Positions 2,973-52,500 of a stretch of DNA of 64,000 bases are shown here, piece by piece. This DNA is from a virus. Lineage: Duplodnaviria; Caudoviricetes. How positions within the stretch are numbered: the first letter of the stretch is position 1; each line of letters begins with the position of its first letter. The stretch lies in the IMG/VR virus record IMGVR_UViG_3300028832_000128, positions 11,586-75,585 of that record; one strand, 5' to 3'. A program made the position numbers and the translations under genes. A model generated the notes under the pieces. That model was not told where the DNA came from and searched no databases. It saw only the letters and a list, made by a program, of their open reading frames with translations.

Positions 2973-3983
2973 TTATTTCATCTTGTTTTCAAGTTCCTTC
3001 AATTCTTTTAAATTTTTAACATTGTTAATTTTTTTAATCATATCGTCATCGTTCGTAGTCGTTTTAGTAGGTGCGGCTGAAGCAGCAGCTTGTTTTTGTT
3101 TATTCTTTTTTTCCTGCTCTGCTGCAAGTATTCTTTCTTCTCTTGCTCTGCGTGCTTCGGCAATATCTCTTATAACATATAACGACGTTATTTCCGGATG
3201 TTCGACTGTTATCTTTTTAAATTCTTTAGCAAGACTTTCTTTTTCTTCTTTGCTCATACCTTCGGTTATATCATCCCATTCGGCTTGAGCTTGCTTTTCA
3301 AGTTCTTTTCTTTGTTCTTCTATTTTTTCTTGCTTGCTTTTATCATTATTTTTAGGTTCTGTTTTGCCTGTAAATTTTTCTATAACATTTTCTATAGCTT
3401 TAATAGGATCATTCATAAATTCTTCGTTAAATTTATCAATCATCTCTTGTTTTTCTTCTTTGGTCGGCTCATTCTGTTTTTCTTTTACATTTTTAACATC
3501 CTGCTCCAACTGTTCAAGTCTTTGTTTTAACTTATCGTTTTCGGTTTTAATATTGTTGCGTTCGGCAAGTGCAGACGATTTACTTTTCTCGGCTTGTCTG
3601 CCCCATTCAACAACATCTTCAACATATTTAAACTTATCCGGAATATTGTATTTTTTCCTTAACTCATCAGTTACAGGCGTTTTTTGTTTTTTATTTACTT
3701 TATCATTTCCGGTATCATTATCATCATTATCATTATTATCTGCGTTGTTATCTTTATTATGTTCATCACTGTTATCATCGCCATCATCGTTATTGTTATC
3801 TGTATCATTGTTTTCATCGTTGTTTTCTGTGTTATTATTTTGGTTATCATCGTTGTTGTTGTCATTATTATTGTTGTTATCGTTGTTTTTATCATCAACT
3901 TTTTCATCTTTTATTTGTGTTTCCATTTGTTCTAATTCTTCAATACTTTTTACACTGTTAATTTTATTTTCCAAATCAGCCAT
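2973..3983 (-). CDS. Capsid scaffolding protein
   Basis: Acidic, Asn/Asp low-complexity and coiled-coil protein immediately upstream of the capsid gene. Confidence 0.7.
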   Translation of the reverse strand: MADLENKINSVKSIEELEQMETQIKDEKVDDKNNDNNNNNDNNNDDNQNNNTENNDENNDTDNNNDDGDDNSDEHNKDNNADNNDNDDNDTGNDKVNKKQKTPVTDELRKKYNIPDKFKYVEDVVEWGRQAEKSKSSALAERNNIKTENDKLKQRLEQLEQDVKNVKEKQNEPTKEEKQEMIDKFNEEFMNDPIKAIENVIEKFTGKTEPKNNDKSKQEKIEEQRKELEKQAQAEWDDITEGMSKEEKESLAKEFKKITVEHPEITSLYVIRDIAEARRAREERILAAEQEKKNKQKQAAASAAPTKTTTNDDDMIKKINNVKNLKELKELENKMK

Positions 3984-7841: not shown

Positions 7842-8453
7842 CTAATTCATTAAATTTGATTGATTTTTCAATATATTTTTAATTAAAACTTTTGTAACTT
7901 TTGAATTATCTTCAGTTTTTTCGTTATTTTTTTCAAAATTAGCACTCTCAAAACTGCTTGAATTTTCAATACTTTTTGCATTTTTTGATTTTCCGTCAGT
8001 TAAAAGATCCAAAATTTCAGTTCTTGAAGTCATTTTTACGGTCTCGGTTCTTGAAGTAACTCCACCGGAAAGCAATTGTATCTTATCTACTGCTATAGCC
8101 ATCGCCATAGCTAATTGACTTAATGACGCTTTTTCTCTCTTCTTTTTAAGCCCCATTTCCGTCAATATCTCTTGCGTTATTTCTTGCAGATTTTCGACGG
8201 TCTTTGTAGCCCAATTCTTTGTTGTAGCAAGGACGGTATCTCGAATTTCCTTTTTTACCTGTCCTATTCTCTCCCCAAAGAGCCTGTTTATCTTAGTTAT
8301 TGTATCAGGCGACACTTTGTGTTTTTTTGCAATTTTGTCGTGCGAAACAAGCCCTATGCAAAGGTCAGAAACTATTGCATTGACTGTTGTTTCAGGGAGA
8401 TTAATTTTTTCTAAATTTTCAGTATTTTCCATATTATTTTTTATGCACGACAA
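7842..8453 (-). CDS. Putative terminase small subunit (HTH protein; start may be 8432)
   Basis: N-terminal HTH-like segment then LAMAMAIAVDKIQLLSGGVTSRTE, a pattern seen in putative TerS proteins; no other TerS candidate present. Confidence 0.5.
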   Translation of the reverse strand: MSCIKNNMENTENLEKINLPETTVNAIVSDLCIGLVSHDKIAKKHKVSPDTITKINRLFGERIGQVKKEIRDTVLATTKNWATKTVENLQEITQEILTEMGLKKKREKASLSQLAMAMAIAVDKIQLLSGGVTSRTETVKMTSRTEILDLLTDGKSKNAKSIENSSSFESANFEKNNEKTEDNSKVTKVLIKNILKNQSNLMN

Positions 8454-8525
8454 CCTAATATTTTTAACTTCTAAAATCTTAATTTTATAGACGATAAAAT
8501 CATTATACCGGTATCAAATACGGTA

Positions 8526-8870
8526 TTATTTAATTTCGCAAAGTAAAGCATATATCCGCCGTTCGCTTACACCTATCAACTTATGTATTTTTCGACGACC
8601 GTAACCAAGTTGAAAATGTAAAAAAATAACAAATCTTTCAATTTTGGTATATCGTCCTAAAGCGGTTATCTTTGCTTTTTTTTCAAATTTCAAATAGCTG
8701 TTATATTCTGTTGATCTTAATTTGCTTTTATAATTAACGGATATTTTCCGTTCTACATATTTTCGTCTAACAAACTTGTAAAACTTTTCATCCGGAATCA
8801 ATTTTATCTTTGGAGCTTTGCTTTTATATTCGTCTATATCAAACAACAAATTTTGTCTTTTTCTCGTCAT
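8526..8870 (-). CDS. HTH DNA-binding protein, putative late regulator
   Basis: C-terminal LGYGRRKIHKLIGVSERRIYALL helix-turn-helix. Confidence 0.6.
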   Translation of the reverse strand: MTRKRQNLLFDIDEYKSKAPKIKLIPDEKFYKFVRRKYVERKISVNYKSKLRSTEYNSYLKFEKKAKITALGRYTKIERFVIFLHFQLGYGRRKIHKLIGVSERRIYALLCEIK

Positions 8871-8875
8871 AAAAT

Positions 8876-8920
8876 AAAAAAGACGGCAATAAACAGAGTT
8901 TAACTCTGCTTATTACCGTC
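8876..8920 (-). terminator. Terminator/attenuator upstream of the HTH regulator
   Basis: GACGGTAATAAGCAGAG-TTAAA-CTCTGTTTATTGCCGTC followed by TTTTTT. Confidence 0.8.
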
Positions 8921-8936
8921 CATATTTGTTAAATTA

Positions 8937-8987
8937 TTATAACTGCAAATAAAAAAAGCCAAAGAAAAAAATGTCCTTCTTACCCAT
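8937..8987 (-). CDS. Putative 16-aa leader peptide MGKKDIFFFGFFYLQL
   Basis: Lies between promoter and terminator; start overlaps the ATGGGTAAGA antisense target. Confidence 0.45.
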   Translation of the reverse strand: MGKKDIFFFGFFYLQL

Positions 8988-9008
8988 TTTTTATCTTTCG
9001 CCGATTTG

Positions 9009-9037
9009 ATTTTAATATATTTTAAAAAAAATGTCAA
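9009..9037 (-). promoter_or_regulatory. Sigma70-type promoter
   Basis: TTGACA-17 bp-TAAAAT followed by CAAATC, as at the early promoter. Confidence 0.75.
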
Positions 9038-9045
9038 CATATTTT

Positions 9046-10218
9046 TTACCTATGCACGATAATTTTTAAAACTTGCACAAGTCTCGTAAGTTCTTGTTTC
9101 CAATTTTTTTTATATTCGTCTATATGTTTAAGTGCTTCAAATTGTCCGTATTTACTTTTTAAATCTGCCATCATTACATTAAAATTCACAGTCTTATATA
9201 CTATATCTTGTGTTTTGTTTTCTTTAATATCTATATGTTGTGTTTGTTCTTTTTGTTTTTCTTGTTCTTTTCTCTTATTTACTGCTGCAACACAAATTTG
9301 ATTACAGGATGTTTCTAATACTTCCAACGAAAATTTATTATATTGCCAAGCAGATTTATTCGTCGCAAGTTTAAAAAATTCTTTAATAATATAAGCCGCT
9401 TTAAGTTCTCCATAAGTTGTAAATATTCTGTTCATTATGCTCATATCTTTTTTAAAATTACATTTAAATTGATTATTAAATTCGGACTGAAACAACATAC
9501 ACCAATAACCTAAAAGTCTTTTACTTGCGTTATCAGAATTGATTAATGATTTTTTGTTATTAATATCTTCGATATTAATTTTAATATTATTTATATATAT
9601 ATTATTATAAAAACTTTTTTTTGTAATTTCGTATTCATTCAAATTTGCATTGATTTTTGAATTGATTTCTTGTTTATTATCAATATTGATAATTTCCTTA
9701 TTTTGTTGTAAATTATTATTGATTTTTAAGTCGTTTTTTGAATTTTCAAGCGTGTTATCAATATTGATAATTTGTTCTTTTTTTTCTTCGTTATTTAAAT
9801 TGTTATCAATATTGATAATTTTAACATCCTTTTTTTCTTGGTTATCGTCTATCTTTAAGCTATTTTTTTGATTTTTATTTGAATTTTCAACCGCATTATC
9901 AATATTGATAATTTGTTGCCACTTTTTCGTATTTTTTACAACCGTAAAATAGTTTTTTTTGCCTACTTTTTCTTTTATTATTATTCCCATATTCTGTAGG
10001 TTTTTTAAGCCTCTTAAAACATTTGTAACGCCTAATCCGGTAAGTTCCACAAACTCGATGTTTTCTATGCAATTTTTATTCATACCGTAGCCGTAAGTCT
10101 TAGCCAATATTACATATAACACCTGATGTGTTTCTCCTGCGATCCTAAGCCCTGCTAATCTTTCCCATATTTCAACATCGATTAAACCTTTTCTTTTATT
10201 TTCAAATAAATCATCCAT
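9046..10218 (-). CDS. Replication initiator, lambda O-like
   Basis: N-terminal winged helix (VLYVILAKTYGY...ELTGL...LQNMGII); internal IINIDN repeats from iterons. Confidence 0.8.
   Translation of the reverse strand: MDDLFENKRKGLIDVEIWERLAGLRIAGETHQVLYVILAKTYGYGMNKNCIENIEFVELTGLGVTNVLRGLKNLQNMGIIIKEKVGKKNYFTVVKNTKKWQQIINIDNAVENSNKNQKNSLKIDDNQEKKDVKIINIDNNLNNEEKKEQIINIDNTLENSKNDLKINNNLQQNKEIINIDNKQEINSKINANLNEYEITKKSFYNNIYINNIKINIEDINNKKSLINSDNASKRLLGYWCMLFQSEFNNQFKCNFKKDMSIMNRIFTTYGELKAAYIIKEFFKLATNKSAWQYNKFSLEVLETSCNQICVAAVNKRKEQEKQKEQTQHIDIKENKTQDIVYKTVNFNVMMADLKSKYGQFEALKHIDEYKKNWKQELTRLVQVLKIIVHR
9676..9912. repeat. Four palindromic iterons (a/g)TTATCAATATTGATAAT, putative origin
   Basis: Copies at 9676, 9754, 9802 and 9895 inside the O-like gene. 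Confidence 0.8.
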
Positions 10219-11557
10219 ATTGCTCGTTCTCCTTATTAAAAAATTTAGTTTGCGTTGCTTCGAATATTAAATCTATATCGCCACACGCACCGTTACGGTT
10301 TTTTCCTATTCGTATTTTGGCGTTTCTTTGCACCGTATCGTCGTTCGGTTTATAATATCCCTCACGCCACACAAACAAAACAACATCTGCGTCTTGTTCA
10401 ATCGCTCCGGAATCTCTTAAATCACTTAACACCGGAATAGAGTTTTTTACTCCCCTTTGTTCAGGAGCTCTTGAAAGCTGGCTTAAAACAATAACAGGCA
10501 CATCCAAATCCCTTGCCAAACTTTTTAATTGCCTCGAAATATCAGCTATTTGGTTGTTTTTATCTTTAATACTACTATCTCCTCTTAAAAGCTGTAAATA
10601 ATCAATTACAATCAAATCTAAATGCTTTCCTTTGGTTTTTAATTTATTTGCACAATTTCGGCTCTTGCTTCGAATATCAAAAGCCGTAGAATCGGCACTG
10701 TCGTCAATTAAAATATTCATACTTCCTAACGATTGAGCTGCATTAGATAATTCAGCCCATTCATTATCTGCAATATTTGCGTATTTCAGTTTACTTGCAC
10801 TCATACCGCTTACGGATGATAACAACCTTTGTATTAATAACTTACGGCTCATTTCTAAACTAAACACCGCAACCGCTTTACCTGATGTAGCCACATTTTC
10901 GGCAATATTCAACGCAAAAGCGGTCTTTCCCATGGACGGACGCCCTGCAATAATTATCAGTTCTCCGTTTTGAAATCCGCCAATCCTTTTGTCTAAGTCG
11001 ACAAATCCGCTTGCAAGCCCCGGCACAGCGGACCTGTTGCTATGCAAATATTCGATGTTTTGCACCGCCGAAACAATATCTTTATAAATCTCCGTCAAAC
11101 TATTATCTTTAACGTTTTCACTTGCAACGGCAAATAATTCTTGTTGTGCATTATCTAATATTTCTTTTGCAGTTTTGGTTTGTTCTGATACATCGTTTGC
11201 AATTTGCATTGCCGCTTTCAAAGTTGCTCTCAATATGCTTTTTTCTCGCACAATATCGATATAACTTCTATATCCCGCCGTAGTTTGGACGTTATTAATT
11301 AAATTAGTAAGCCAAACCGGACCGCCTTTTTCGGCGTAAATTTTATTGCTTTTTAATTCGTTGTTTACCGTAACAAGATCGACACTTTGCCCGTTTGTCC
11401 ATAGTTTTTTACATACATTAAATATGTCTGCGTGTATTCCCATATAAAAATCATTTTCGTTTAATCTCGAGCAAATTTCGCCGATAGTATCGGAATTTAT
11501 AACCATACAAGCTACTATAGCTCGTTCAGCGTTTAAATCTTGAGGAAATTCTTTCAT
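10211..11557 (-). CDS. dnaB: Replicative DNA helicase
   Basis: Walker A AGRPSMGKT; IVIDYLQL, SQLSR and LRDSGAIEQDAD motifs. Confidence 0.95.
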   Translation of the reverse strand: MKEFPQDLNAERAIVACMVINSDTIGEICSRLNENDFYMGIHADIFNVCKKLWTNGQSVDLVTVNNELKSNKIYAEKGGPVWLTNLINNVQTTAGYRSYIDIVREKSILRATLKAAMQIANDVSEQTKTAKEILDNAQQELFAVASENVKDNSLTEIYKDIVSAVQNIEYLHSNRSAVPGLASGFVDLDKRIGGFQNGELIIIAGRPSMGKTAFALNIAENVATSGKAVAVFSLEMSRKLLIQRLLSSVSGMSASKLKYANIADNEWAELSNAAQSLGSMNILIDDSADSTAFDIRSKSRNCANKLKTKGKHLDLIVIDYLQLLRGDSSIKDKNNQIADISRQLKSLARDLDVPVIVLSQLSRAPEQRGVKNSIPVLSDLRDSGAIEQDADVVLFVWREGYYKPNDDTVQRNAKIRIGKNRNGACGDIDLIFEATQTKFFNKENEQYG

Positions 11558-11566
11558 TTTGCACCC

Positions 11567-11764
11567 TTAAAATAATTTCATTTGTTTGTTTTCTCGTTGC
11601 TGCAAATCTTCATAATCTTTTAAAATCTCTTCGAATATTGCAACTTGTCTGTCTGCCTGAGTTTGTGTCATTCTTTTAGCTAAAACCAAATTAGGATATA
11701 CTTTTTTTCTAAATCCCAACTCTCTTTTTATTGCCTGAATTTTATCTCTTGTTGTTATCGACAT
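11567..11764 (-). CDS. Hypothetical protein
   Basis: ORF in tightly packed early operon. Confidence 0.6.
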   Translation of the reverse strand: MSITTRDKIQAIKRELGFRKKVYPNLVLAKRMTQTQADRQVAIFEEILKDYEDLQQRENKQMKLF

Positions 11765-12023
11765 CCGCTCTCTCCTTTTTCTTAAAATGTTTCATTACTC
11801 TGTTTATTGTTTCTTGTGATATTTCTTGAATATCATCCATGCAAAGCCAAAACTCTCTATTTAAAATTTTAAAATTCAAATCCCATGGAAACATTAAATT
11901 ACAAATTAATAAATCATCGTCGGTTTTGCGACATCCATCTTCACAGCCGTGTGTTTTTCTGTATTCCTTGCAGACCACTAATAATTCTTTCCTGCTAAAC
12001 TCAACAACTATCTTGTCGTCCAT
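11742..12023 (-). CDS. Hypothetical Cys-containing protein
   Basis: ORF in early operon. Confidence 0.5.
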   Translation of the reverse strand: MDDKIVVEFSRKELLVVCKEYRKTHGCEDGCRKTDDDLLICNLMFPWDLNFKILNREFWLCMDDIQEISQETINRVMKHFKKKERADVDNNKR

Positions 12024-12306
12024 TTAATTGTTTCCTTTGTAAAAATTTAACAAACAGATCTTTTTTCTTTTTTAATTGTTTTTCGAGTTCTCTTATTTCT
12101 CGTTTCATTTTTTCAATTTCGCTTTCCGGATCCATTACACTCCACACATGTTCTTTTCTTTCTCCCATATACACCGCTATCATTTCAGCACAATCAAACT
12201 TGTCCATTGTTCTAAAATCAAGTATTATTTGTCTGCAAACATCTCTAAATTGCTCTTCGTCTTTTTCGTAATGATATTTAATTAATCTAAGTATTGTATT
12301 AATCAT
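12001..12306 (-). CDS. Hypothetical protein
   Basis: ORF in early operon. Confidence 0.55.
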   Translation of the reverse strand: MINTILRLIKYHYEKDEEQFRDVCRQIILDFRTMDKFDCAEMIAVYMGERKEHVWSVMDPESEIEKMKREIRELEKQLKKKKDLFVKFLQRKQLNGRQDSC

Positions 12307-12471
12307 TTATTCGTCCTCTTTTTTCAGTGCGAAAAAAATCTGCAAAGTATGTCCTCTTCCTACACTAACCACAACCTGTCTGTTGTCTTTATGAATTACT
12401 TTCTGTATTATCCATTTTTTTCCATCGACTTCTTCTATTACTCTACCTACTTTGTAATCACTAATTTTCAT
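12307..12471 (-). CDS. Small unannotated ORF, 54 aa (MKISDYKVGRVIEEVDGKKW...)
   Basis: Exactly fills the gap between neighbours; below the ORF-track cutoff. Confidence 0.55.
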   Translation of the reverse strand: MKISDYKVGRVIEEVDGKKWIIQKVIHKDNRQVVVSVGRGHTLQIFFALKKEDE

Positions 12472-12472
12472 A

Positions 12473-12793
12473 TCAGCTATTTTCATTATTTATTCCCTCT
12501 TTGTCGCCAAATTTTGTTTTTATAAATTCAATTAAAAAATCTATTTCAGATATACAATGCCGCAACATTCTTACATGTTCTGTTTCTTCATGCATAAAAT
12601 CACGTTCAAAATGCAAATGCGGATAAAATATCTCTTTGTTTTTTTTAGCAATTTTTTCCCGTTCTTTTTCTTCTTTTTTTCTTCTGTCTTCTTCTTGTAA
12701 TGCTTTTGCTACATACTCCGCATGCAATTTTTCGATTCTGTTTTTTAAAAATTTTTTTCTATTTTCCAATTCTTTTAATGTTATATAACGCAT
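12473..12793 (-). CDS. Hypothetical coiled-coil protein
   Basis: ORF in early operon. Confidence 0.55.
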   Translation of the reverse strand: MRYITLKELENRKKFLKNRIEKLHAEYVAKALQEEDRRKKEEKEREKIAKKNKEIFYPHLHFERDFMHEETEHVRMLRHCISEIDFLIEFIKTKFGDKEGINNENS

Positions 12794-12797
12794 ATAT

Positions 12798-13055
12798 TTA
12801 ACCCTTTTTCTTTTTTATTCTGTTTATGAATTTCTTTAAGCCGATTCTTGCACCTTTTAACGTTTTGTAACAATAGTCGTTGTAAAACACTCGTCTAAAG
12901 TCGTCTAAATAATAAATAAATACAGTATTCCCTATTAATTCTCCTCTAACAACACGAATTGTGATTTTATCTATTGTCAGTTTATCGCCTAACCAATGTG
13001 TAACATAGACGGTATCTCCCTGTTTAAATTTGCTTTTTACCTGAAATTTACTCAT
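12798..13055 (-). CDS. Hypothetical protein
   Basis: ORF in early operon. Confidence 0.55.
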   Translation of the reverse strand: MSKFQVKSKFKQGDTVYVTHWLGDKLTIDKITIRVVRGELIGNTVFIYYLDDFRRVFYNDYCYKTLKGARIGLKKFINRIKKKKG

Positions 13056-13377
13056 TTTTTAATACCTTAAATTCAATATCAAAAACTTTTCCGTTATACT
13101 TTAAATCCGTATCTTTACCGTCAATAATTCTTGCTCTTTTTATAATCGCTTTTATTATTTTTTCTTTGTCGTTTTTCTTAGGATAACCTAAAGTAAAAAC
13201 AATGTTAGGATTAGGCGGAATATATACATAAGTTCCCAAGTTTAAATGCTTATATATTCTATTAATCCAATATTTATTCCAAATCCTATATTCGTGTGTT
13301 TTCTCTCCGGATTTTACCTTTTCAAACCACTCTTTCTTTAGATGAAACATTAACATTGTTTTGCTCCTGCGTTTCAA
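13048..13377 (-). CDS. ASCH/PUA-like domain protein
   Basis: LKKEWFEKVKSGEKTHEYR matches the ASCH GxKxxExR motif. Confidence 0.75.
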   Translation of the reverse strand: MKRRSKTMLMFHLKKEWFEKVKSGEKTHEYRIWNKYWINRIYKHLNLGTYVYIPPNPNIVFTLGYPKKNDKEKIIKAIIKRARIIDGKDTDLKYNGKVFDIEFKVLKNE

Positions 13378-13801
13378 ATTTTTTATATTCTCTAATAAAA
13401 ACAGTTAATGCAATAAAAAAATCTCCTATAACTGACACTTCTTCGGATGAAAAATTAAATTCTCTTTCACATAAATTAATCAATCCGAATCCAGTGTTAT
13501 TTGTTATTCTAATTATCATTAAATAAGTTTTCCCTTTGTTCCAAAGAGTGTTTCTGACTTCAAGAAAAACATTTATTCTATCGTTTTGAAAAATATATTC
13601 TCGTTTTGATAAGATTTCTCTGTTTCTTGACTCTATTTCTTTATAAATATTGTTTTTATCTATACATTTAAAGTTTAATTGTTTAAACAAACGACATATT
13701 ATGTCTATTTCGATTTCTATCATTTCAGAAAAATCCCTCATTCTTTGTTCTCCTTGCGTTTTAACAAACTTGTAAATTATATTTTCCGTATTTTTTAACA
13801 A
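13322..13801 (-). CDS. Hypothetical protein (start probably internal)
   Basis: ORF in early operon. Confidence 0.5.
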   Translation of the reverse strand: MLKNTENIIYKFVKTQGEQRMRDFSEMIEIEIDIICRLFKQLNFKCIDKNNIYKEIESRNREILSKREYIFQNDRINVFLEVRNTLWNKGKTYLMIIRITNNTGFGLINLCEREFNFSSEEVSVIGDFFIALTVFIREYKKFETQEQNNVNVSSKERVV

Positions 13802-14273
13802 AGTCTATATACTTAAAACTTCCGTCTATTTGTTGGTTTTTTATTTCAGTCTCTGTTGAATAATCGCAGTCGACATATAAATGACAACCGGATTCGTTTT
13901 TGTATTTAGCTAAATTAAGTTTTTTGTGCCAATAATCAAAATGTTGTCTATCTGATAAAACAAGTAGTTTAAAATCTTTTTTATCACAATTTAAGTTCGA
14001 ACCGAACTTAATACATTCATCTAAATTTTTACATCTTCGAATATAAACTTTCCAACCGTCATCAAAATGGACTCCGAAAGGGTTAGAAAAACTCGCTCCT
14101 TCTAAAGGTTTTAAACATTCTTTGCCTAATAAAAAATAAAGATGATCTAAAAGATTATCCTCTGTTTCAAAAACAGGATAACTTGTAGTTTTGTATAAGC
14201 TTTTAAAGATTGCTAAATATAAAGGTTTTTTATATTCTTTACAGAAAAAACGTCTAATCCAAAATGGAACCAT
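13761..14273 (-). CDS. Hypothetical protein
   Basis: RBS AAGGAGAC upstream. Confidence 0.6.
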   Translation of the reverse strand: MVPFWIRRFFCKEYKKPLYLAIFKSLYKTTSYPVFETEDNLLDHLYFLLGKECLKPLEGASFSNPFGVHFDDGWKVYIRRCKNLDECIKFGSNLNCDKKDFKLLVLSDRQHFDYWHKKLNLAKYKNESGCHLYVDCDYSTETEIKNQQIDGSFKYIDFVKKYGKYNLQVC

Positions 14274-14527
14274 TATTTTGTCTCCTTAAAATAAACATAT
14301 TTACCGTCTTTCCTTGCGAACGCTCCGCATGGCACCGCAGGACAATGAAACCTATTCAGGTTAAAAAAACACTTCTTACACTGCTCTTTAATACTGCTTT
14401 CAATTACTTCCAATTTAAATTTTCTAACGCCGTAATTACCATCTTCCCATTGATAAAATACAGGTAACTCCACAACTTCAACTACCATCTTCCTAAATGT
14501 ATCCTTGTTTTTAATTCGTTTCTCCAA
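14273..14527 (-). CDS. Hypothetical Cys-rich protein
   Basis: CKKCFF...CPAVPC...RKDGK pattern. Confidence 0.55.
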   Translation of the reverse strand: MEKRIKNKDTFRKMVVEVVELPVFYQWEDGNYGVRKFKLEVIESSIKEQCKKCFFNLNRFHCPAVPCGAFARKDGKYVYFKETK

Positions 14528-14679
14528 TAGCCGATCCGGTAATCATTAATCACGGAATTAACCACAAATAAAATCATAAATACTTTAAAATACCATGCAC
14601 AACTTAAACTACATACAAACCAAACCAACGCTGCCGGAATTAAAATTGTTCTTACTACAGCCCAAATCATTCTAAACAT
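14482..14679 (-). CDS. Small membrane protein
   Basis: Two hydrophobic segments. Confidence 0.5.
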   Translation of the reverse strand: MFRMIWAVVRTILIPAALVWFVCSLSCAWYFKVFMILFVVNSVINDYRIGYWRNELKTRIHLGRW

Positions 14680-14998
14680 GTTTTTCTTCTCCTTGATATT
14701 TTTTTATTACGTCTAATTTTGCTTTTGCAATATCAAAATCAAACTGATATGTTCCTACTACGTAACCCATACCACCGGCGTTGCTCATACCTACGCCGAT
14801 TTTTTCAGTTTTGTTTTTTGTGTATTGCAAATAAGCGTTATAAAGCTCTGTATTACCTTTTATTTTTTGAGTAACAATATAATTGCGGATAATCATACCG
14901 TCTAAATACGGAGTTCTTTTGATTTTTGTTTTGTGATAAGTAAACCTTAACACTCTCTCCAATAATTTCCCTACCTTATCAACCTGATAACCCTTCAT
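14672..14998 (-). CDS. Hypothetical protein
   Basis: Coupled to neighbouring genes. Confidence 0.55.
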   Translation of the reverse strand: MKGYQVDKVGKLLERVLRFTYHKTKIKRTPYLDGMIIRNYIVTQKIKGNTELYNAYLQYTKNKTEKIGVGMSNAGGMGYVVGTYQFDFDIAKAKLDVIKKYQGEEKHV

Positions 14999-15204
14999 TT
15001 GTCCAGCTCCTTTTTAATTTTATTTAAACTCCAATATTTACAACCGTTTCCGAATTTTTTACCTGCAATTCCCCAAATCTTCATACGATGATAAACTCCG
15101 TCTCTATCTTTTAAACCGAAAAATTGTCTCAAAAACTCCGCATTTACATATTTGTCGCCAAAAAGCTCCTTAACATCGGGCTTAATTTCATTTACTACTT
15201 GCAT
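14995..15204 (-). CDS. Excisionase/Cro-like small DNA-binding protein
   Basis: First gene of the early operon, divergent from the repressor; winged-helix-like 69 aa. Confidence 0.55.
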   Translation of the reverse strand: MQVVNEIKPDVKELFGDKYVNAEFLRQFFGLKDRDGVYHRMKIWGIAGKKFGNGCKYWSLNKIKKELDK

Positions 15205-15265
15205 ACAACCCCCTTAAAACCTTTTACAACCGTTGCAAAAACTACACAAAACGGCTATAATTAAT

Positions 15266-15357
15266 AAAAGGCTGTAGGATATGGGTAAGATAACCTACAG
15301 CCGGCTCATAGCTCTCTTTTGGCGAAAGATACAACAATATTATTGTTGTCGCTATGA
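15266..15357 (-). ncRNA. Structured antisense/attenuator RNA, P4 CI- or P1 C4-like
   Basis: TCATAGC/GCTATGA stem; ACAACAA/TTGTTGT hairpin; ATCTTTCGCC segment; GGCTGTAGG/CCTACAGCC hairpin with TCTTACCCAT in the loop, then TTTT. Confidence 0.65.
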
Positions 15358-15404
15358 TTTTTTATAAAAGTTTGTTGTGATAAGAAAAAAAGATTTTTAC
15401 CCAT
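15306..15404 (-). CDS. Putative 32-aa leader peptide MGKNLFFLSQQ...
   Basis: Start overlaps the ATGGGTAA target; frame runs through the structured RNA. Confidence 0.4.
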   Translation of the reverse strand: MGKNLFFLSQQTFIKNHSDNNNIVVSFAKREL

Positions 15405-15430
15405 TTTTTTACCTTTCGCCAATTTTTTGT

Positions 15431-15483
15431 TTTGATTTGATTGTAAAACTTTTGATTTGATTGTAAAACTTTTTTAAAAGTTT
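15431..15483. promoter_or_regulatory. Putative operators: 20-bp tandem repeat tttgatttgattgtaaaact x2 and inverted repeat aaactttt-tt-aaaagttt
   Basis: Overlap the early promoter between the divergent xis/cro and repressor genes. Confidence 0.6.
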
Positions 15484-15488
15484 GTCAA
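15460..15488 (-). promoter_or_regulatory. Early lytic promoter (PR-like)
   Basis: TTGACA-17 bp-TACAAT. Confidence 0.8.
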
Positions 15489-15504
15489 GTATTTTTTTAA
15501 AAGA

Positions 15505-15864
15505 ATGAAAATAACTAATTTAAAAAACAAAATTAAACATTTATTATTAGAGCAAGGTTTAAGTCAGAGCGACCTTGCAAAAAAGATTGGTGTGCATAGA
15601 CAAGTTTTAACAAATTGGCTAAGCGGAACAAGGAATCCTAAAATAGAAAATTTAGAAAAGATAGCAAAGGCACTAAATATATCTGTAGAGGATTTATTGA
15701 ATGATAATAAAAATTTTTCAGACGTCCAAATCAATATTAACTCCAAAGGCAAAGTAAATCAGACAATCCAAAAACAAGATCTAAAAGACAAGGAGATTGA
15801 ATTGCTTAAAAAAGAGATTGAATTGCTTAAAAAAGAATTAGAATTAAGGAGAAAACAAAAATGA
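15505..15864 (+). CDS. CI-like repressor (XRE HTH) with coiled-coil C-terminus
   Basis: LSQSDLAKKIGVHRQVLTNWLSGTRNPKIENLEKIAKAL; no S24 peptidase domain. Confidence 0.9.
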   Translation: MKITNLKNKIKHLLLEQGLSQSDLAKKIGVHRQVLTNWLSGTRNPKIENLEKIAKALNISVEDLLNDNKNFSDVQININSKGKVNQTIQKQDLKDKEIELLKKEIELLKKELELRRKQK

Positions 15865-16118
15865 AAAAAATTCTATTATGCTGTTTGTTTTTGATGATAC
15901 CAGCGTTATGTTTGGCGGATCAATATGTAAATGGTTATTATCGTAAAGATGGAACTTATGTAAATGGTTATTATAGGTCGTCTCCAAATAACACGTCAAG
16001 AGATAATTACTCTTATAAAGATAACTATAATCCCTATACAGGAGAAACAGGATCGAATTATTACAGAAACGACAGAACATCAGAATATTACAACGGTTAC
16101 GGTCAAGATAGAAGATAA
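15861..16118 (+). CDS. Small secreted Tyr/Asn-rich protein
   Basis: Signal peptide, YVNGYYR x2, NYNPYTGETG. Confidence 0.75.
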   Translation: MKKILLCCLFLMIPALCLADQYVNGYYRKDGTYVNGYYRSSPNNTSRDNYSYKDNYNPYTGETGSNYYRNDRTSEYYNGYGQDRR

Positions 16119-16120
16119 AA

Positions 16121-16324
16121 ATGCGAACAACAATAATTATTATTTTGGCTTTTGTTATAGGTTTTCTTGTCGGTCAAGCAACACATATCTATACTTTTAA
16201 CAACAGGGGAGATATTAGATTAAATACTATAACCGGAGATATTACAACTGTAGGAGATCTTCTAAGATCGAACTCTAAAAATAATAATCGATTAAATTTA
16301 TCCGGATTAAATTTGGAAAAATAA
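16121..16324 (+). CDS. Small membrane/exported protein ending in LNLSGLNLEK
   Basis: N-terminal hydrophobic helix; 2-nt gaps to both neighbours. Confidence 0.7.
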   Translation: MRTTIIIILAFVIGFLVGQATHIYTFNNRGDIRLNTITGDITTVGDLLRSNSKNNNRLNLSGLNLEK

Positions 16325-16326
16325 CA

Positions 16327-17430
16327 ATGCAAGAATTAGAAGAAAGAAACGGTAAATTCAGTTTTAGATACTTCGATGTTGACGGTCATTTTCGTCGTCA
16401 TACTTGCGTTAGTTTATTAAAAAGAGAAGCCGAGCTTGAGCAGGCACAATTTTTATTGGATCTAAAAAAATCAAAAGCAGATTATAACGGTAAATATAAT
16501 ATCGATTCTCTTTTATGGTCTCATTTTTGTCAACTTTATTACAACAATTATGTAATACCGAACGAAATCGAACCATCAGCGGTTAAAACAGTAATAAAAC
16601 AAATCGATGAAATTTTACATATAAAATATTTAAAAGAATTAGATAACGAAAATATAAATCGTTTTATTGCGGAACGCAGAAAAACAGTTGTTTCGTCCAC
16701 AACAAACAGACAACTACATGTAATTAAAAGCATGTGGACCTACGCTATTAATACTTTGGAGTTAAATATAAAAAGCCCGGCAAAACCTATAAAAGACGCT
16801 CCTGTAGAATTAATTAAAAATATAGAATTTTTTACAAACGATGAAAGAAAAAAAATATTAAACCAAATTCAACCGGCTCATATTAAAACAATATGCTGGC
16901 TTATGTTTAGTTTTGCTTTAAGAATTAAAGAAGCTGTGTCGGTTCAATGGCAGGATATTAATTTTAAAACAGGTAAAATTTTTATATATCCGTTCAAAAC
17001 AAAACGCACGGATCCAAACAGAATATCGCTTACCATGCCAACCGATTTTATTGCTTATATAAAAAAATTACCACGTAAATCAGATTTTATATGCGGTAAA
17101 GATTATACAAGCAAAAATGCACGCTCGGTTATTTCAAAACAAATAAAAAAACGATTTATAGAGATTATAGGCAAAGGCAGGTCTCACATGTGCAGACACA
17201 CTTTTGTCAGTCATGCAATAAATAATCCGGAAATAAAAGATAGGGATATAATGAAAGTAGCAAGGATAAAAAATCCTAAAGTATTAGAGATTTATGCTCA
17301 CTACACAAAGGAAAGAGAACAAACCATAGCAAATAATATATACAACATACATCAAATCACGCCTCAGGAAATCGATAAAAAGATAAAAGAATTGCTTGAA
17401 TTAAAGAGTAAATTAACCAAATCTAAATAA
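16327..17430 (+). CDS. int: Tyrosine integrase
   Basis: R (ALRIKE), HxxR (HMCRHTF) and Y (IYAHY) catalytic motifs; adjacent att site. Confidence 0.92.
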   Translation: MQELEERNGKFSFRYFDVDGHFRRHTCVSLLKREAELEQAQFLLDLKKSKADYNGKYNIDSLLWSHFCQLYYNNYVIPNEIEPSAVKTVIKQIDEILHIKYLKELDNENINRFIAERRKTVVSSTTNRQLHVIKSMWTYAINTLELNIKSPAKPIKDAPVELIKNIEFFTNDERKKILNQIQPAHIKTICWLMFSFALRIKEAVSVQWQDINFKTGKIFIYPFKTKRTDPNRISLTMPTDFIAYIKKLPRKSDFICGKDYTSKNARSVISKQIKKRFIEIIGKGRSHMCRHTFVSHAINNPEIKDRDIMKVARIKNPKVLEIYAHYTKEREQTIANNIYNIHQITPQEIDKKIKELLELKSKLTKSK

Positions 17431-17431
17431 T

Positions 17432-17632
17432 AAATTTACCCAAATTTTACCCATATAGACGAGAGATATTACCTTGAGAGGGCGATGTCCTAAACCGCTA
17501 GACGATGGCAGCAGTTCCACTCTTTTAATACTGTTTTACACGACTTTTTATTGATTTTTGAATAAATTTCAACCTTTTTCAACCTTTCCAAACCTTTCCA
17601 AAACGTTATAAAATTTACCCAAATTTTACCCA
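17432..17632. other. attP-form attachment site
   Basis: aaatttacccaaattttaccca at 17432 and 17611 flank the tRNA-derived core; three 10-bp aacctttYYM repeats at 17571-17600 (possible Xis sites). Confidence 0.75.
17472..17512 (-). pseudogene. 5' half of tRNA-Glu(CUC), att core
   Basis: GCTGCCATCGTCTAGCGGTTTAGGACATCGCCCTCTCAAGG; similarity stops 2 nt after the anticodon loop; no T-arm. Confidence 0.85.
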
Positions 17633-17724: not shown

Positions 17725-20700
17725 TTAAGCGGCTTTTTTTACCGCTTTTTTATACTTGCGTAGCATATTTACAATTTCGTTTTCCATTTGTATTTTTGTT
17801 TTTTCATTATCCTTTTGCTGTTTAAAGGTTAATTTTTTTCTGCTATCCGTAGAATTTTTAACAAACTTATTATACGCCGTTATTTTCTTGCTAATACCTT
17901 TTATATACGGAGAATGTAACCTTAAATAATTCAGCTCTTCAGATGTCAATTTTCTCAAACCTTCTTTATAAGATTTTTCCAAAGCCTCAAACCTTTCTCT
18001 TTCGTCATAAAATTGTTGCATTTCTCGCCCGTAAATAAAATAACTTTCTTGTAGCCACGGTATAACAGATTTTCTAAATGCCTTTTCTTTTTCCGAAACA
18101 TTACCGGTAACAAAATCGGCAAGGTCTGTTTGTGTTTTACCTGACAATTTATCAAAAATAAATTCAGCACCTTTTTCAAGAATACTCCCAACTTGCCCCG
18201 CTACATTATAAATATAATAATCTATTTTAATCGGAGCAATATTAAATTGCTTACCTAAAAACTTTGCAATGTTACTTGTTTTTTCGTCATACTGTAATGC
18301 TTTTTCTCTCTTTTGCAAATACTTCGGAACAATATCTTGCAACGTCGGATAAGTCTTTTTCCCGCCGCCAAGCATTAATCCTATTTTTACTATCTGCGGA
18401 AAATTTCTATACATCAATTGTTCCCATCCTGAATTATCTTTTTCAATTAAGGTTTTAAGTAAAGGAACAACAACGTTAAAATTATCCGGAATAACTCCGC
18501 CTGTTAAAGTTTCTGCGTATTCGCTCAATTTGTAATCATACTCGTTTTTAATTTCGTCATGAATCATTGCAGCTATAACAGCAGGAAAAGAATACAATTG
18601 CTCCCATGGCAACCTTAACAAATCCGTATTATTTAATCCAAACGGCAGATAAGCAAATCTCAAAAACTGAGCAGGATTTAACTGTTCTTTTAGATTTTTT
18701 CTTGTTTCATCCTTAATATTATCCCACCACAACGAAACAACAAACTGAAATATACCATAACCTATCATGGCAAACAATGTTTTTAAGAATTTATTTTTTT
18801 CTTTGTATTCATAAACACCTTTATTGTTTTGTTGTAAATTAACAACTTTACGTCTTTCTAATAAATTATTTCCTTTTGTTGTAAGCAAACTTCTTACACC
18901 TTGTCTTATTACCTGAAGAGAAGCGTTCATATATGGAACCGACCTTAATAAAGATCTGCCGAATCCGCCACCCCATAAACCTCTATCGCCAAACGGGACC
19001 GAAACTTCGTCAGCCATTCTTTTAGCCGTAATAATATCAAAGCCCGCCGCTCTTGCTTTTACATACTCCGTTCTTCTTGTAACAACTTCAGACAGATTCG
19101 GTAAAAACGATAATACTTTTCTTGCTCCGCCGAAAATTTTACTTAAAGTATTTGTTTTAAACGCTTCTGCTAAATCGTCCGGATTAACTTCATCCAAACT
19201 TGTAATAAGAGCTTTGTTATCTCCAAACAACTCGTTATATTCGTCATAATACTGTTTTAATTCAGGATTTTGTCTACATTTCACATAACTCATTAAAGGA
19301 GAAAAAAACGGAACATATCCCATATCAGAATTAACAGCTGCCGTTATCTGATCTCTTGCAAAGTTAGTTGTTGCAAAAACAGGATTTTCCGCTGTAGTCA
19401 TTAATGTAAAAAACTTTGCAGGAGCAACCATCAATTTTTCTATTAAGCTCATTTGATAATTATCAATCAAACTATCCCAAACCTTTTTAACAAACGGATC
19501 CATTTCTAAAGTTTGTTTAATATCTTTACCAGTTTGTCTGTTAGTTCCGACTACAACGAGCTTACTGTTATTTTTTTCGTCTCCTTTTGTATAAGGAACC
19601 TTTTGCATAAGGTCCGGATATAACTCGGCAATTTCGCCCATTCTGTTAGCTATCAACTGTTTATAACTTTTCTTATATGCTTCTTTCATTAGTTGTATCG
19701 AAGAGTATAACGGAGAAAGAATAGGCAACTCGCTACCTTCAATCTTTTTTAAGTTTTTAATATTCCAGTTCGAAGATACTATTTTTGGAATAACGTCGTT
19801 TTTTGCTCCGATTTTTTCAACAAACTCTTTACCATCCCCGGTAAGCTCATTATAAGCTACTCTGTTAAACGGAGCATAACCGTAATTAGCAACAAGCTCG
19901 TTATACATATCTTTATCAATTAACTTTGCTGTTCTTAATACGGTTAAATTACACTTCATTAAAAAGTCATATTTTTTTGCAAGTTCTCTGTTTTGTGTAT
20001 TATCTAAAAACTTATACGCCTCTTTAATTTTTTCTTCATTCTTTCCGCTTTTAGCAAGAATACTTTGCAACTCTTGCAACTTTGCACCGTCTTGTTCAAT
20101 CTTTTTTGTAAGTTTGTCAATTTCTCTTTTTAAATCTTGTTCCAATTGAAACGTTGTTTTTTGATCGTGTATGTTATAAAAATCCTGCTCTTTAATTTTT
20201 TTGCTTACTTCGTCATATCTTTTTTGCAGCTTCTTCAAATTGTTTCCACTAATCACAAGCCCGTTTGCAAGTTTATCTCGCATATCATACCAAGCCACAA
20301 AACGCCTTGCTACTAAATATCCGTTAAACTCACTTTGTGCTTTTTGCACATCTTCAATTAATGTTCTCCAATTAACAGTATCACTCACTTTTACCGGATT
20401 GCCGTGATTATCAATTATATACATCTTACCTTTTTTGTTGGTTAAATTGTTTTCTAATATACCTTTTAAAACGGTTCTATATCCTTTTGCTGTTAAATAC
20501 AAATCCTTGTCCAGCATTTTTAATACGGCTTCACTATCAAATAATTGACTATCGATTCTTACCCCAAGCGGAATTTTTGTTTTATCTTTTACTTTTTGAG
20601 CTTTATCATATATCTCGGTTGTAAGTTGTTCTACAGGATTTAAACTTTCATAATCAACAACAATTTGTCTTGCGTCATTTCTAAAAGATTGTAAAGTATC

Positions 20701-23700
20701 GTTACCCATAGCCCACTTATAAGCGTTAGGATATAAATTTTCTATCATATCCGGATTAATTATCGAATGTTGGATTATTGTAGCAAGTCCTTCAGCCAAT
20801 CTGTTTTTTACACTTTGTTTTGAAATATCTACAGGATATAAGTCTTTACATGCTTTCAATATTTCTGCAGCTGCTTTACCTTCAAAAGTGTTTATATCAG
20901 GCACAAAGGTCGTAAACGCTCTTTTGCCTTTATATGTTGTATTTGCTGTAAATCCTTTATCGTAAAGGTCTGTAATAATTTGTTGTTGGTCGTCAATAGC
21001 GTGCACAAGCTCATGAGCAACCACATCTACATTAAGTAAACTGTTTAAATAAATATTGCCTTTTCTGCTACCGTAATTATAATACACTCCCAAAGTATTT
21101 TTAGGTCTGTATTTGCTTTCGGCAATATTGCTTACCATATACTTTTTAGCCAAATCGTAAGTTCTTTGATACAATTTAAAATCTTTTTCTTTTGGTGTTT
21201 CGTTATTTTTTATTTTTACATCGGTTTTAAGTGCGGAACTATAAGCGGCTCTGCCTTTACCGCCTAAGGATAAATTTACAGAACCGTTTTCTTTTTCAAT
21301 TTCTTTTTTTACTTCGTCTGCTTTGTTTTTAATCGATTTAAGATTTTTGAATTTAGATAAATATTTTGCCTGTTCACTGGTAAATTCTCTTGCGGTATTT
21401 GCAAGGTTTTCTTGTTGAAAGAATTTGTCTATAAGAAGATTACCGAGCTTATTTTCAAGTTCGGTTAAAGTGTCGGCGGTTACTCTTCCCCGTAAAACTT
21501 CGCTCCCTGTGATTTCTCCAACGCTTTCCACTCTTCCATTTCTTTGTCCATCTCCATCGATTCTTGCGGTGTTATCAGCCTGTTCGGCTTGCTGGATAAG
21601 CTGTCGAGCTTGGAGCTCTGTAAGCTCTTCTGAGGATTCTGCGATATTGTTTTTTCTGACATAATCATCCACTGCCCCCTTACTAAACTTATTATACAAT
21701 ATTTTTGCGTTTTTGTCATCCCCTATATTTGCTCCGCCTTGTCCTGCTCCTAAACAACTCGTTGCTACAACGGTTCCGCCGTTTCTTTCAATATATTTTC
21801 TTAGCTCGTTTATATTTGCTCCCATTGTAAATATATCGTCCACTAAAATATATTGTAAATTAGGCACCACTTCGCCGCTAAACATTGCCTTGTCTACTAT
21901 TCTATACATCGCTCCCGAACCGGTATGATAAGTTTTGTTTATTTGTTTAATCTTATCGTATAATTTTAATCCTGTAATTCGTCTAATTTTACCGGCATAA
22001 GCTAAAGGAATTTTGTTTTTACCTGCTTTTTCTATGGACCATAACGGCACAATTACAGCATTAGGATATTTTTCTTTTAATGCTTTTAATTGTTCGATTT
22101 TGCCTTGTATATTTTTTGCTACACTTGCACTTTTGCCGTTAGTATCAAATATTTTGTCCACTAATTCGTAAGCACTTTTTAAATCTCCTGCTTTAGCTTT
22201 TTTATGTAAATCACTATATTTTATTACATTAGGCGTAATCGTTATTTGCACGGAATCAACAGGTTTTGTTATAGGGCAATTTATTTTTTGTAACGTATCA
22301 TTTTGTATTACACTGTCTTCGATGTTTTTTGTTGCCTTTATTTGTTCGTTGTTTGTTTTTCCGTCAACGGCAAGCCCTAAATCTTCATATTTGCCTACAA
22401 TTCTGTCGATACTTTCAAGTTCTTCCCAAATACTTGCGTTGTCGTTGCCTGTTGCTTCTTGCAAAGTATGCTCGGCTTGATCCCACGTATAACCTTTATT
22501 ATTTATAATACCATCTTTTTCGTCATAAAAAAATTCTCTTCTTATTCTCGGACTTAAATGTTCATACTCTCCATAATTTGGATCGCCCTTTTTAGGTCTT
22601 ACAATTCTACCGATACCCATATCTTTTAATCTTTGTTTTTCGCTTTTAATTGTAGGTATAGCTCCATCTTGTTTTAACTCTTCGATAATCATTTGTTCGT
22701 ATTCTTCTTTTGCTCTTGCCTCATCTTCCAATTGTTTGGCATAATTCTCATCCCACTCGGCAGGATTAAACGATGTATCGATATTACTATCGTCATTAAT
22801 AATACTGTCTGTTTGTTCTGTTTCTATGTTTTCAATAGGTTGTTCAATAACTTGCGGATAATTTGTTGACACATCCACCAACACATTATTCGGACTTATA
22901 TAATTTATACCGTTTCCGTAAGTAATAAACCCTAACAATCCGTTCTTTTCTCCTATATATATTCCGTAACTCGAATTATTTATTTTATAAATATTTCCTT
23001 TTACAGGTTCGAACTCTTTATTGTTTATATTGCTCGGCAAATTCTTCGATGTTTCTTCTGTAGGATTTTCAATTACATTTGCTAATCTTTGTCTTATAAT
23101 ACTTGCTTCTGTATTTTTTACTTGCTTTGTTATGTTTTCCAAAGTATCGTTATATTTAATGTTTACATCTGAATTAACCTTAACAATGTTTTTACCTGTT
23201 TCAATTCGCCCCGGTTCAATGTTTACATCTGTATTAATCGGTTTTTCTGCTTGCGGAATTTTTGCCATTTTGGTTTTGATATTTATTGCTACAGCGTCAT
23301 CCGGGCTTATATTTTTAGCTGCTTTATCTATAGCGGTTTTAAACTGTTTTTCCTGCTCCGGACTTACTTTGTAGCCTGCTTTCTTCAATTTGTCAATTGT
23401 GTTATTTGCTGCGTCAGATAACAAAGTTTTTTTAAACTTGTTTACACCAGCACCTATAACAGCGGTATCTCCTACAGCTTCCAATAAGCTCGCTCCGAGT
23501 TTTATGTATTCGTTAGTATCTTCAGGTAACGTTTCAGCCAACATTCTTATTTGCATAGGAGAATATTTTTCGCCTTTAGCTTTTGTTACTATCAAATTTT
23601 TTAACTGTTGCAACCCCGCAAACCCTGCCAAGGCAGTTACAGGCATTGCACCGGTTAAAGCAAGTGTAGGCAATTGTGCCGATAACACTGCAAAATCTTG

Positions 23701-35198: not shown

Positions 35199-35380
35199 TT
35201 CGTTTTATTTCCTGTTTTTTTATCTTTTTTTACACTTCTTATAGTGTTTATATCTTTCAGAGTTTTCTATTCGTTAAAAACGAAATACTAACCCTGCCTT
35301 TTGTTGTCTTATTTTCACCAAGTGGTGCGGATTATACAAACAATAGAAAATATTTTTACTCCAAGTTTTTAAGATATTAA

Positions 35381-43840: not shown

Positions 43841-43916
43841 CGCTTTCTGTAGGATTCGAACCTACACTCCCAAATACACCGGTTCTTTGGTGTTCTTCCG
43901 TCTAAACTAAGAAAGC
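43841..43916 (-). ncRNA. tRNA-like RNA, 76 nt, with an 11-nt loop in place of the anticodon loop
   Basis: GCTTTCT TA GTTT AGACGGAA GAAC A CCAAA-GAACCGGTGTA-TTTGG GAGT GTAGG TTCGAAT CCTAC AGAAAGC G; no encoded CCA. Confidence 0.75.
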
Positions 43917-46063: not shown

Positions 46064-46151
46064 CATATTTGTTAAATTATTATAACTGCAAATAAAAAAA
46101 GCCAAAGAAAAAAATGTCCTTCTTACCCATTTTTTATCTTTCGCCGATTTG

Positions 46152-52347: not shown

Positions 52348-52408
52348 ACAACCCCCTTAAAACCTTTTACAACCGTTGCAAAAACTACACAAAACGGCTA
52401 TAATTAAT

Positions 52409-52500
52409 AAAAGGCTGTAGGATATGGGTAAGATAACCTACAGCCGGCTCATAGCTCTCTTTTGGCGAAAGATACAACAATATTATTGTTGTCGCTATGA
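52409..52500 (-). ncRNA. Structured antisense/attenuator RNA (copy)
   Basis: Identical to 15266-15357. Confidence 0.65.

Follow-up and report, generated by a model that had tools for sequence, protein, structure and literature searches.

The question raised by this locus is whether one structured RNA in the early leader of a temperate phage pairs not only with its own leader but also with a second, distant one. The locus lies in a 64,000-nt stretch of DNA (hereafter the window; GC 32%) that covers positions 11,586 to 75,585 of the 75.6-kb IMG/VR virus record IMGVR_UViG_3300028832_000128 (Caudoviricetes), and the region concerned is the lysis/lysogeny control region of the phage. Here, a structured RNA carries two boxes, a′ and b′, that are complementary to boxes a and b at the start of a short open reading frame (ORF), once upstream in the same leader (the proximal target) and once in a leader behind a promoter of its own (the distal target). 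The initial annotation of this DNA read the arrangement as an RNA-based layer of immunity or attenuation. The pairing, the structured RNA and its covariation in related phages bear this out, and we hold it very probable that the a′/b′ RNA and the two leaders form a real RNA–RNA pairing network with a modular specificity code; the RNA species itself, its ends, and the direction, sign and outcome of control are what we infer from these features.

The evidence that carries this conclusion comes from relatives, gathered via the contigs of homologues of the 69-aa and 114-aa products (the first genes after the early and the distal leader, respectively) and by one pattern scan each of the GTDB genomes and the JGI metagenomes. 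Close homologues of the two products were found only in metagenomes, and the relatives comprise rumen and gut metagenome phage genomes of ~37–39 kb together with one prophage that lies on a contig of 146 kb from an Elusimicrobia metagenome-assembled genome (MAG) of sheep rumen. Within IMG/VR, protein-seeded searches with both products returned nothing, exact target patterns of three specificity types returned only chance look-alikes of Shine–Dalgarno (SD) and start sequences, and the conserved 3′ block was found in no further record; this block matched one Elusimicrobia MAG and two relevant metagenome contigs. Scanning 401 Elusimicrobiota genomes with the 69-aa protein recovered only the same MAG and one weak match, the leader of which shows neither a/b boxes nor any other likeness to the RNA.

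Upon alignment of the early leaders, the box sequences proved to vary, with matched changes in a and a′ and in b and b′. For six specificity types, a single contig spans both the RNA and the distal leader, 5.7–7 kb apart (Table 1), and in all six the distal a and b are complementary to the a′ and b′ of their own phage, the proximal boxes matching slightly less well. The covariation check that the initial annotation had proposed thus came out in favour of pairing, distal target included. Sequence around the distal boxes is ~90–100% conserved, and the changes concentrate in the boxes themselves.

Table 1 Box sequences of the six specificity types (L and G numbers denote loci and genomes of relatives)
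Type	Phages	Distal a	Distal b	a′	b′
T1	window, L185, L188, L189, L191	GGCGAAAGAT	ATGGGTAAGA	ATCTTTCGCC	TCTTACCCAT
T2	L178, L183	as T1	ATGCTTGG	as T1	CCAAGCAT
T3	L184	CGGTCAAGGT	ATGGTTAG	ACCTTGACCG	CTAACCAT
T4	L194	GGCGAAAGA	ATGAGTGAGA	ATCTTTCGCC	TCTCACTCAT
T5	MAG G001 (L169/L170)	GGCGAGGA	GAGTGAGA	TCCTCGCC	TCTCACTC
T6	L199	as T3	as T1	as T3	as T1

A duplex-energy matrix computed for T1–T5 placed the cognate pair best in 5/5 rows, for distal and proximal targets alike, and over all six types the distal duplexes (−29 to −34 kcal/mol) were as good as or better than the proximal ones (−27 to −30 kcal/mol). Proximal and distal boxes differ in five types (T1, T2, T4, T5 and T6), and each time b′ is perfectly complementary to the distal version. 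Because b′ pairs with the distal base wherever the two differ, it appears tuned to the distant site, and the better complementarity of the distal version points to selection acting directly on the pairing of the a′/b′ RNA with the distal leader rather than to a cis-only element with a paralogous copy. Collectively, covariation in the six types argues strongly for real RNA–RNA pairing in trans.

Furthermore, the a and b boxes reassort as modules, with three a types and four b types: T6 joins the a of T3 to the b of T1, and a seventh combination (A5B1) occurs on a contig that holds a distal leader only (L203). RNA type is also uncoupled from cI/operator type. Two tandem 20-nt repeats over the start region of the early promoter, candidate operators of the window's cI type, recur in L183 and L194, which carry other RNA types, while other cI types have different repeats; L178 combines another cI with T2.

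Within the window, the boxes, their bipartite layout and the short ORFs at both leaders (32 and 16 codons) lie exactly where the initial annotation had placed them (Table 2), and its pairing counts, 10/10 plus 10/10 at the distal target and nine pairs with one G-U in a plus 8 nt in b at the proximal one, were reproduced. The proximal boxes lie ~90 nt upstream of the RNA boxes in the same leader transcript. In a search of the window, exact copies of a′ and b′ were confined to the RNA and, as complements, to the distal leader, and the bipartite target pattern (GGCGAAAGRT, 4–8 nt, ATGGGTAA) occurred four times, at two sites per phage unit, against 0.00 expected in shuffled sequence. Promoters were scored as consensus matches to sigma-70-like hexamers (out of 12). 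The two minus-strand promoters reported previously hold in position and sequence, and are the two best such matches in 8500–15900. The promoter tail AATCAAATC said to be common to both is so in this phage and is not general, since the distal promoter stays the same in relatives whose cI/operator type is different. No internal minus-strand promoter of at least 10/12 precedes the RNA core, the position of which fits an origin in the early leader, and the 114-aa gene and the block that follows it have no other recognizable promoter in the same 8500–15900 scan. A terminator-like hairpin ends each leader, as had been noted: the 9-bp H3 with its U-rich tail proximally, the 19-bp t2 distally.

Table 2 Features of the control region in window coordinates
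Feature	Position	Strand	Description
Box a′, ATCTTTCGCC	15321-15330	-	5′ arm and loop of H2
Box b′, TCTTACCCAT	15281-15290	-	15-nt loop of 9-bp hairpin H3, then TTTTATT
Proximal box a, GGCGAAAGGT	15411-15420	-	SD-like part of leader ORF start region; pairs with a′ with one G-U
Proximal box b, ATGGGTAA	15397-15404	-	start codon of leader ORF
Distal box a, GGCGAAAGAT	9002-8993	-	10/10 complementary to a′
Distal box b, ATGGGTAAGA	8987-8978	-	10/10 complementary to b′; in and next to hairpin loop
Structured RNA core, ~95 nt	15262-15356	-	four helices P1, H1, H2, H3 and U-rich tail
P1	15356-15351 / 15312-15307	-	CAUAGC/GCUAUG; 2/6 pairs compensatory
H1	15349-15331	-	8 bp; 5/7 pairs compensatory
H2	15329-15315	-	contains a′; 4-5 bp; arms change with a′ type
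H3	15302-15270	-	b′ in loop; 9-10 bp; 7/9 pairs compensatory; loop 13-15 nt
U-rich tail of RNA core	15269-15263	-	after H3
Proximal leader ORF	15306-15404	-	32 codons and TGA; crosses P1, H1, H2; stop 3 nt ahead of H3
Distal 5′ hairpin	8958-9002	-	a and A-run pair with U-run and CTTTGGC; -11 to -15 kcal/mol in all variants
U7 (t1)	8951-8957	-	directly after distal 5′ hairpin; terminator-like, putative terminator; invariant in all distal variants
Distal leader ORF	8937-8987	-	16 codons here; frame not conserved among types
Strong intrinsic terminator t2	8871-8921	-	19-bp stem (8921-8881) and U-tract; immediately before 114-aa ORF
Early promoter P_early	15460-15488	-	TTGACA-17-TACAAT; 11/12 match; divergent from cI-like gene
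Distal promoter	9009-9037	-	TTGACA-17-TAAAAT; 11/12 match; directly after O-like replication gene
Tandem 20-nt repeats, AGTTTTACAATCAAATCAAA x2	15431-15470	-	cover -10/+1 region of P_early
Candidate promoter P_as	15233-15261	+	TTGCAA-17-TATAAT; 10/12 match; convergent to P_early
First early gene, 69 aa	14995-15204	-	without family assignment
First gene after distal leader, 114 aa	8526-8870	-	weak sigma-70 region-4-like helix-turn-helix (HTH) lead
cI-like HTH repressor gene, 119 aa	15505-15864	+	HTH_3 6e-19; small ORFs, then integrase follow on plus strand
Integrase	16327-17430	+	phrog_1 2e-38
Second RNA core and proximal target, unit B	52405-52563	-	identical copy, +37143
Second distal target, unit B	46121-46145	-	identical copy

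The structured RNA predicted for the early leader, with its a′ and b′, agrees base for base with the initial annotation. The fold of its core has a z-score of −5.5, and the same four-helix minimum-energy fold was obtained in 9/9 distinct homologous sequences; the compensatory changes of the helices (Table 2) were tallied by script, MAFFT alignments being structurally too inaccurate for automated pair counts. The H2 loop reads CGCCA or UGACC and forms a seed for GGCG or GGUCA, respectively, and the few G-U pairs of the RNA fall on the minus strand. In the distal leader, the 3′ strand of the 5′ hairpin changes with the a type. The initial annotation had called the RNA unrelated in sequence to the C4 and CI RNAs, a description that the Rfam searches support: C4 (RF01695) was not matched in the window at gathering score, nor in 8600–15800 at E ≤ 10, nor at E ≤ 5 in five loci covering T2, T3 and T5, and no Rfam family matches the RNA core in the types searched. 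Two further pairings were considered and set aside, namely GCUAUGA with UUAUAGC downstream of H3, to which P1 (CAUAGC/GCUAUG) is superior with two compensatory changes, and a hairpin in the invariant block 3′ of H3, which is contradicted by non-compensating changes, the block fitting a plus-strand promoter better.

How might this network act? We lean, with modest confidence and by analogy, towards negative control by the early-leader RNA in the manner of P4 CI and P1 c4, as a second immunity determinant beside cI; the mechanisms of the two known RNAs are taken from PMC4825925 and PMC8198154. The bipartite target, an SD-like box a, an A-run and a box b with the start codon, would be met once in cis and once in trans. 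With a and b free, ribosomes would translate the early leader, melt P1, H1 and H2 and occlude the 5′ arm of H3, allowing read-through into the early genes. With a and b bound, either by a′ and b′ further along the transcript or by a free copy of the RNA, H3 would form and the transcript would end as a small RNA, which would accumulate and block further leader translation. The same small RNA would also bind the better-matched distal leader 6.3 kb downstream, so that the next (middle or late) gene block would be kept off; here, recognition is more likely to begin with loop–loop contact of b with b′, after which a′ would invade the hairpin. The combination of a and b would then constitute a specificity code independent of cI/operator type, a second and RNA-based determinant of immunity.

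The proximal leader has the geometry expected of such control. Its ORF measures 32–34 codons in T1–T5 (T6 was not tallied) despite differing peptides, and in 10/11 sequences its stop starts at a distance of −6 to +3 nt from where the H3 stem begins, the exception being one T3 variant (L012 ~3900–3960, compared with L179/L184) in which an A-run shorter by 1 nt cuts the ORF to 18 codons. The distal U-run likewise differs by one T between L178 and L183; homopolymer length variation at both leaders may be either natural or due to assembly error. Conserved length and a stop at H3 fit translation-coupled attenuation, and a ribosome that unfolds P1, H1 and H2 and blocks H3 would fit the positions found. 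A kept ORF length and a stop beside the terminator stem are both seen at the proximal leader and are lacking at the distal one. The claim that the RNA blocks leader translation is thus in keeping with the proximal ORF and doubtful at the distal leader, where neither frame nor stop is conserved and T5 has no ATG.

Several observations weigh against negative control by the early-leader RNA. The distal ORF ranges from 13 to 28 codons and uses three frames among natural variants, T5 offering only a GTG; its stop starts −25, −19, −8 or +18 from the t2 stem, and this variability makes translation control there doubtful. Compensating indels that would keep the frame were considered and ruled out, given the three frames and the single T by which L178 and L183 differ. 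We found no antiterminator fold that would connect a/b with t2. Termination at H3 is not assured either, because its U-tract, which in T2 is degenerate (UCCUAUU), overlaps the −10/+1 region of a conserved candidate promoter on the plus strand. That promoter, absent from the initial annotation, weakens the earlier reading, and the transcript it would produce, the complement of proximal a–b, is predicted to form a duplex of −32 to −47 kcal/mol with the distal leader. The cI-like repressor probably shuts P_early in lysogens, which would silence the RNA as well and makes a role in lysogen immunity doubtful. Finally, covariation cannot tell regulator from target, because base pairing is symmetric, and all relatives belong to one phage group, so that the types do not represent many independent lineages.

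This symmetry gives most room to a reversal of roles, which we regard as unlikely although it accounts for several features of the distal locus. Under it, a short distal RNA (~55 nt, or ~125 nt if it ends at t2) would be a trans-acting anti-sRNA or sponge that, being perfectly matched, outcompetes the imperfect cis pairing, freeing the early-leader ribosome site for more read-through, or that titrates the leader RNA. An 11/12 promoter, a covarying hairpin, the invariant U7 and a second strong terminator are the typical architecture of a small-RNA gene; the promoter is the same across cI types and so probably not under cI control; the distal boxes match a′ and b′ better than the proximal ones do, as expected of a trans competitor of intramolecular pairing; and the ORF frame is not conserved. 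Yet the distal hairpin has a mostly A-U stem with an 11-nt loop, such that t1 may terminate poorly, and the lack of another recognizable promoter for the 114-aa gene block makes the distal leader most likely the leader of that block. In addition, it is a′ and b′ that are presented in the loops of a stable, covarying RNA, like known regulator RNAs, and a constitutive activator of the early genes would oppose lysogeny.

The plus strand offers another possible source of a regulator. P_as sits in a nearly invariant block just 3′ of H3 and is the sole plus-strand match of at least 9/12 upstream of cI; across 11 relatives both hexamers are kept (with TACAAT in one), and changes are limited to the spacer and the outer flank of the −35. 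From a predicted start at ~15268, its transcript would be antisense to the RNA and the leader over their full length and extend into the cI-like gene; the early leader thus probably represents ~186 nt of overlap between face-to-face promoters. The lysis/lysogeny promoters of coliphages 186 and P2 also stand face to face in similar geometry, and the predicted P_early and P_as likewise point at each other. The 5′ untranslated region (UTR) of the cI–integrase operon could accordingly be the active trans RNA that silences both leaders in lysogens, in which it would be a natural source of a regulator: it is fully antisense to the early leader and near-continuously antisense to the distal one, with a predicted duplex equal to or better than that of a′ plus b′. 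We nonetheless judge this improbable. It leaves unexplained why a′ and b′ exist and why b′ matches the distal over the proximal box in five types, the G-U pairs of H1, H3 and a:a′ become A-C mismatches on the plus strand, and the promoter is a consensus match only; moreover, such a transcript can coexist with control by the early-leader RNA instead of replacing it.

A purely cis-acting attenuator, in which a:a′ and b:b′ are long-range contacts of the early leader and the distal boxes a paralogue kept similar by recombination or gene conversion, is very unlikely. The whole-leader minimum-energy fold does pair a with a′ in cis, both leaders have the layout a, A-run, b, U-run, and these phages are highly mosaic; but in 5/6 types the distal boxes differ from the proximal ones and are the perfect complement, the changes in the distal leader concentrate in the boxes with the flanks conserved, and gene conversion would yield the proximal sequence, not a better complement. 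The idea that a protein binds the boxes on DNA as operator half-sites, direct at the two promoters and inverted between them, is scarcely credible despite the short motifs near two promoters and an HTH repressor gene next door, since spacing differs (5–6 nt for a–b, 30 nt for b′–a′), the boxes lie in hairpin loops with covarying stems, G-U pairs are tolerated and box type is uncoupled from cI type.

Negative control by the early-leader RNA may also be only one component of a larger device. We tentatively entertain, as a possibility rather than an expectation, a switch of three competing RNAs, namely the early-leader RNA (a′/b′), a short RNA from the distal promoter (a/b hairpin and U7) and the 5′ UTR of the cI operon made convergently, in which pairing would turn the terminator hairpins H3 and t1 into read-through states or the reverse. 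It would constitute an RNA-only bistable toggle laid over the protein repressor, and the 3 × 4 set of boxes a cI-independent immunity that is exchanged as modules and that evolved independently of P1 and P4.

The genes around the network are arranged in two tandem, related phage units, ~37.1 kb apart (offset 36.7–37.4 kb), that are 100% identical over ~8300–17500 and 73–93% identical elsewhere. Because of this identity, the second copy of each element (+37143) is not independent evidence; the tandem units could represent a true double lysogen in which the control region was exchanged not long ago, or else two strains fused during assembly via the stretch that they share. The minus-strand early operon starts with the 69-aa gene, contains a DnaB-type helicase gene and ends with an O-like replication initiator gene (10218-9046); the label 'xis/cro' previously attached to the 69-aa product finds no support in Pfam or PHROGs. 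Beyond the distal leader, the 114-aa gene is followed by SSB and, in relatives, by capsid genes. The 114-aa protein matched HTH_23 (E 0.007), and its predicted fold (pLDDT 62) has its best PDB matches in sigma region 4 (E 0.2–0.5); Atlas scores, all <0.9, gave no identification.

In relatives, certain fixed positions hold cargo that varies. The slot between a 196-aa gene and SSB can hold an Acb2/Tad1-hairpin family gene, the one behind the O-like gene a gene with a SocA_Panacea domain, and the one adjoining the integrase a Gp49/HI1420 pair (cargo positions L181 2128-2550, L204 1827-2249, L199 8832-9413 and L012 1151-1780). Elsewhere in the window, a tRNA gene (51 bits, 43841-43916, minus strand) is present in unit B only, its unit A counterpart being the SSB gene region, and 35244-35332 (minus strand) matches the Rfam RT-17 and RT-18 RNAs above gathering score (45.4 and 44.1 bits), families that accompany reverse transcriptases. 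Just past the integrase, a giant ORF of 2149 aa (17725-24174, minus strand; Pfam LPD38 in relatives) ends in a clear terminator hairpin (~17710–17672). Beside the integrase stop, the direct repeat GGGTAAAATTTGGGTAAATTT occurs twice ~180 nt apart (17432-17452 and 17611-17631, minus strand) and flanks a tRNA-like fragment; the repeats are candidate attachment-site core or arm sites. They include ATGGGTAAAA, the same as the proximal b box, without an a box, and a third b-like site (17454-17445) was accordingly rejected as part of the repeat next to the integrase.

For six specificities, the natural variation described here stands in for an experiment with compensatory mutations. If the proposed control is true, bipartite antisense immunity evolved more than once, phages with the same cI type could still be heteroimmune, and a modular a × b specificity code would be directly testable in reporters; the locus would also provide compact programmable RNA parts from a new lineage, in the form of two loop seeds, leader targets and terminators. 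Most of what is known of RNA-based immunity in phages concerns P1/P7 c4, P4 CI and their relatives in Proteobacteria; the present locus, in phages of an uncultivated phylum from the rumen, looks like a counterpart of these systems with unrelated sequence.

Compared with known systems, the network has partial counterparts in plasmids and prophages. In the plasmids pT181 and pIP501 and in Anti-Q of pCF10, RNA pairing with the nascent leader, starting loop–loop, decides whether a terminator forms; those plasmid regulators are countertranscripts of their target, whereas the boxes here are bipartite, act in trans and lie on the same strand. In the Gifsy-1 prophage, a single promoter gives rise to IsrK as a short, terminated RNA and to a longer isoform by read-through; the former pairs with the latter in trans and activates translation, and IsrK has been called a structural homologue of P4 seqA (PMC4825925). 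Short and read-through forms from one promoter that control downstream phage regulators are likewise proposed here, with the difference of a separate second target.

Termination in P4 is Rho-dependent, whereas intrinsic-type hairpins are suggested here. The CI RNA of satellite phage P4 derives from the early leader and pairs (seqB with seqA and seqC) with complements in transcripts of the same promoter, leading to premature termination and immunity (PMC4825925). The present RNA resembles it in position, its sequence lying in the early leader with a complementary target upstream. The sequences are unrelated, however, and P4 has no protein repressor, whereas a cI-like HTH gene stands divergent from P_early here; furthermore, both P4 targets flank CI in one leader, while here only the upstream copy is in the leader and the other is distal.

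In P1 and P7, c4 has the targets a1/b1 and a2/b2, is processed by RNase P from a precursor to a species of ~77 nt and underlies heteroimmunity, P1 and P7 differing through c4. The RNA described here differs from it in matching the Rfam C4 model in neither sequence nor structure, in its host phylum (Elusimicrobia instead of Proteobacteria), in overlapping a leader ORF, in ending in a terminator-like hairpin and in being overlapped by a convergent promoter. Its second target lies 6.3 kb downstream behind its own promoter, whereas a2/b2 of c4 is directly downstream, over the ribosome-binding site of the next ORF; no copy of a/b exists between the RNA core and the 69-aa gene. The two systems share a small structured RNA inside an operon leader, a second target covering a ribosome-binding region and an RNA that would act here, as c4 does, beside a protein repressor (c4 of P1/P7, RF01695; PMC8198154, PMC2864571). 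As with c4, an exposed a′/b′ pair faces bipartite targets, one copy of which lies upstream in the same transcript, and, as proposed here by analogy, the specificity of the RNA would set a second immunity type.

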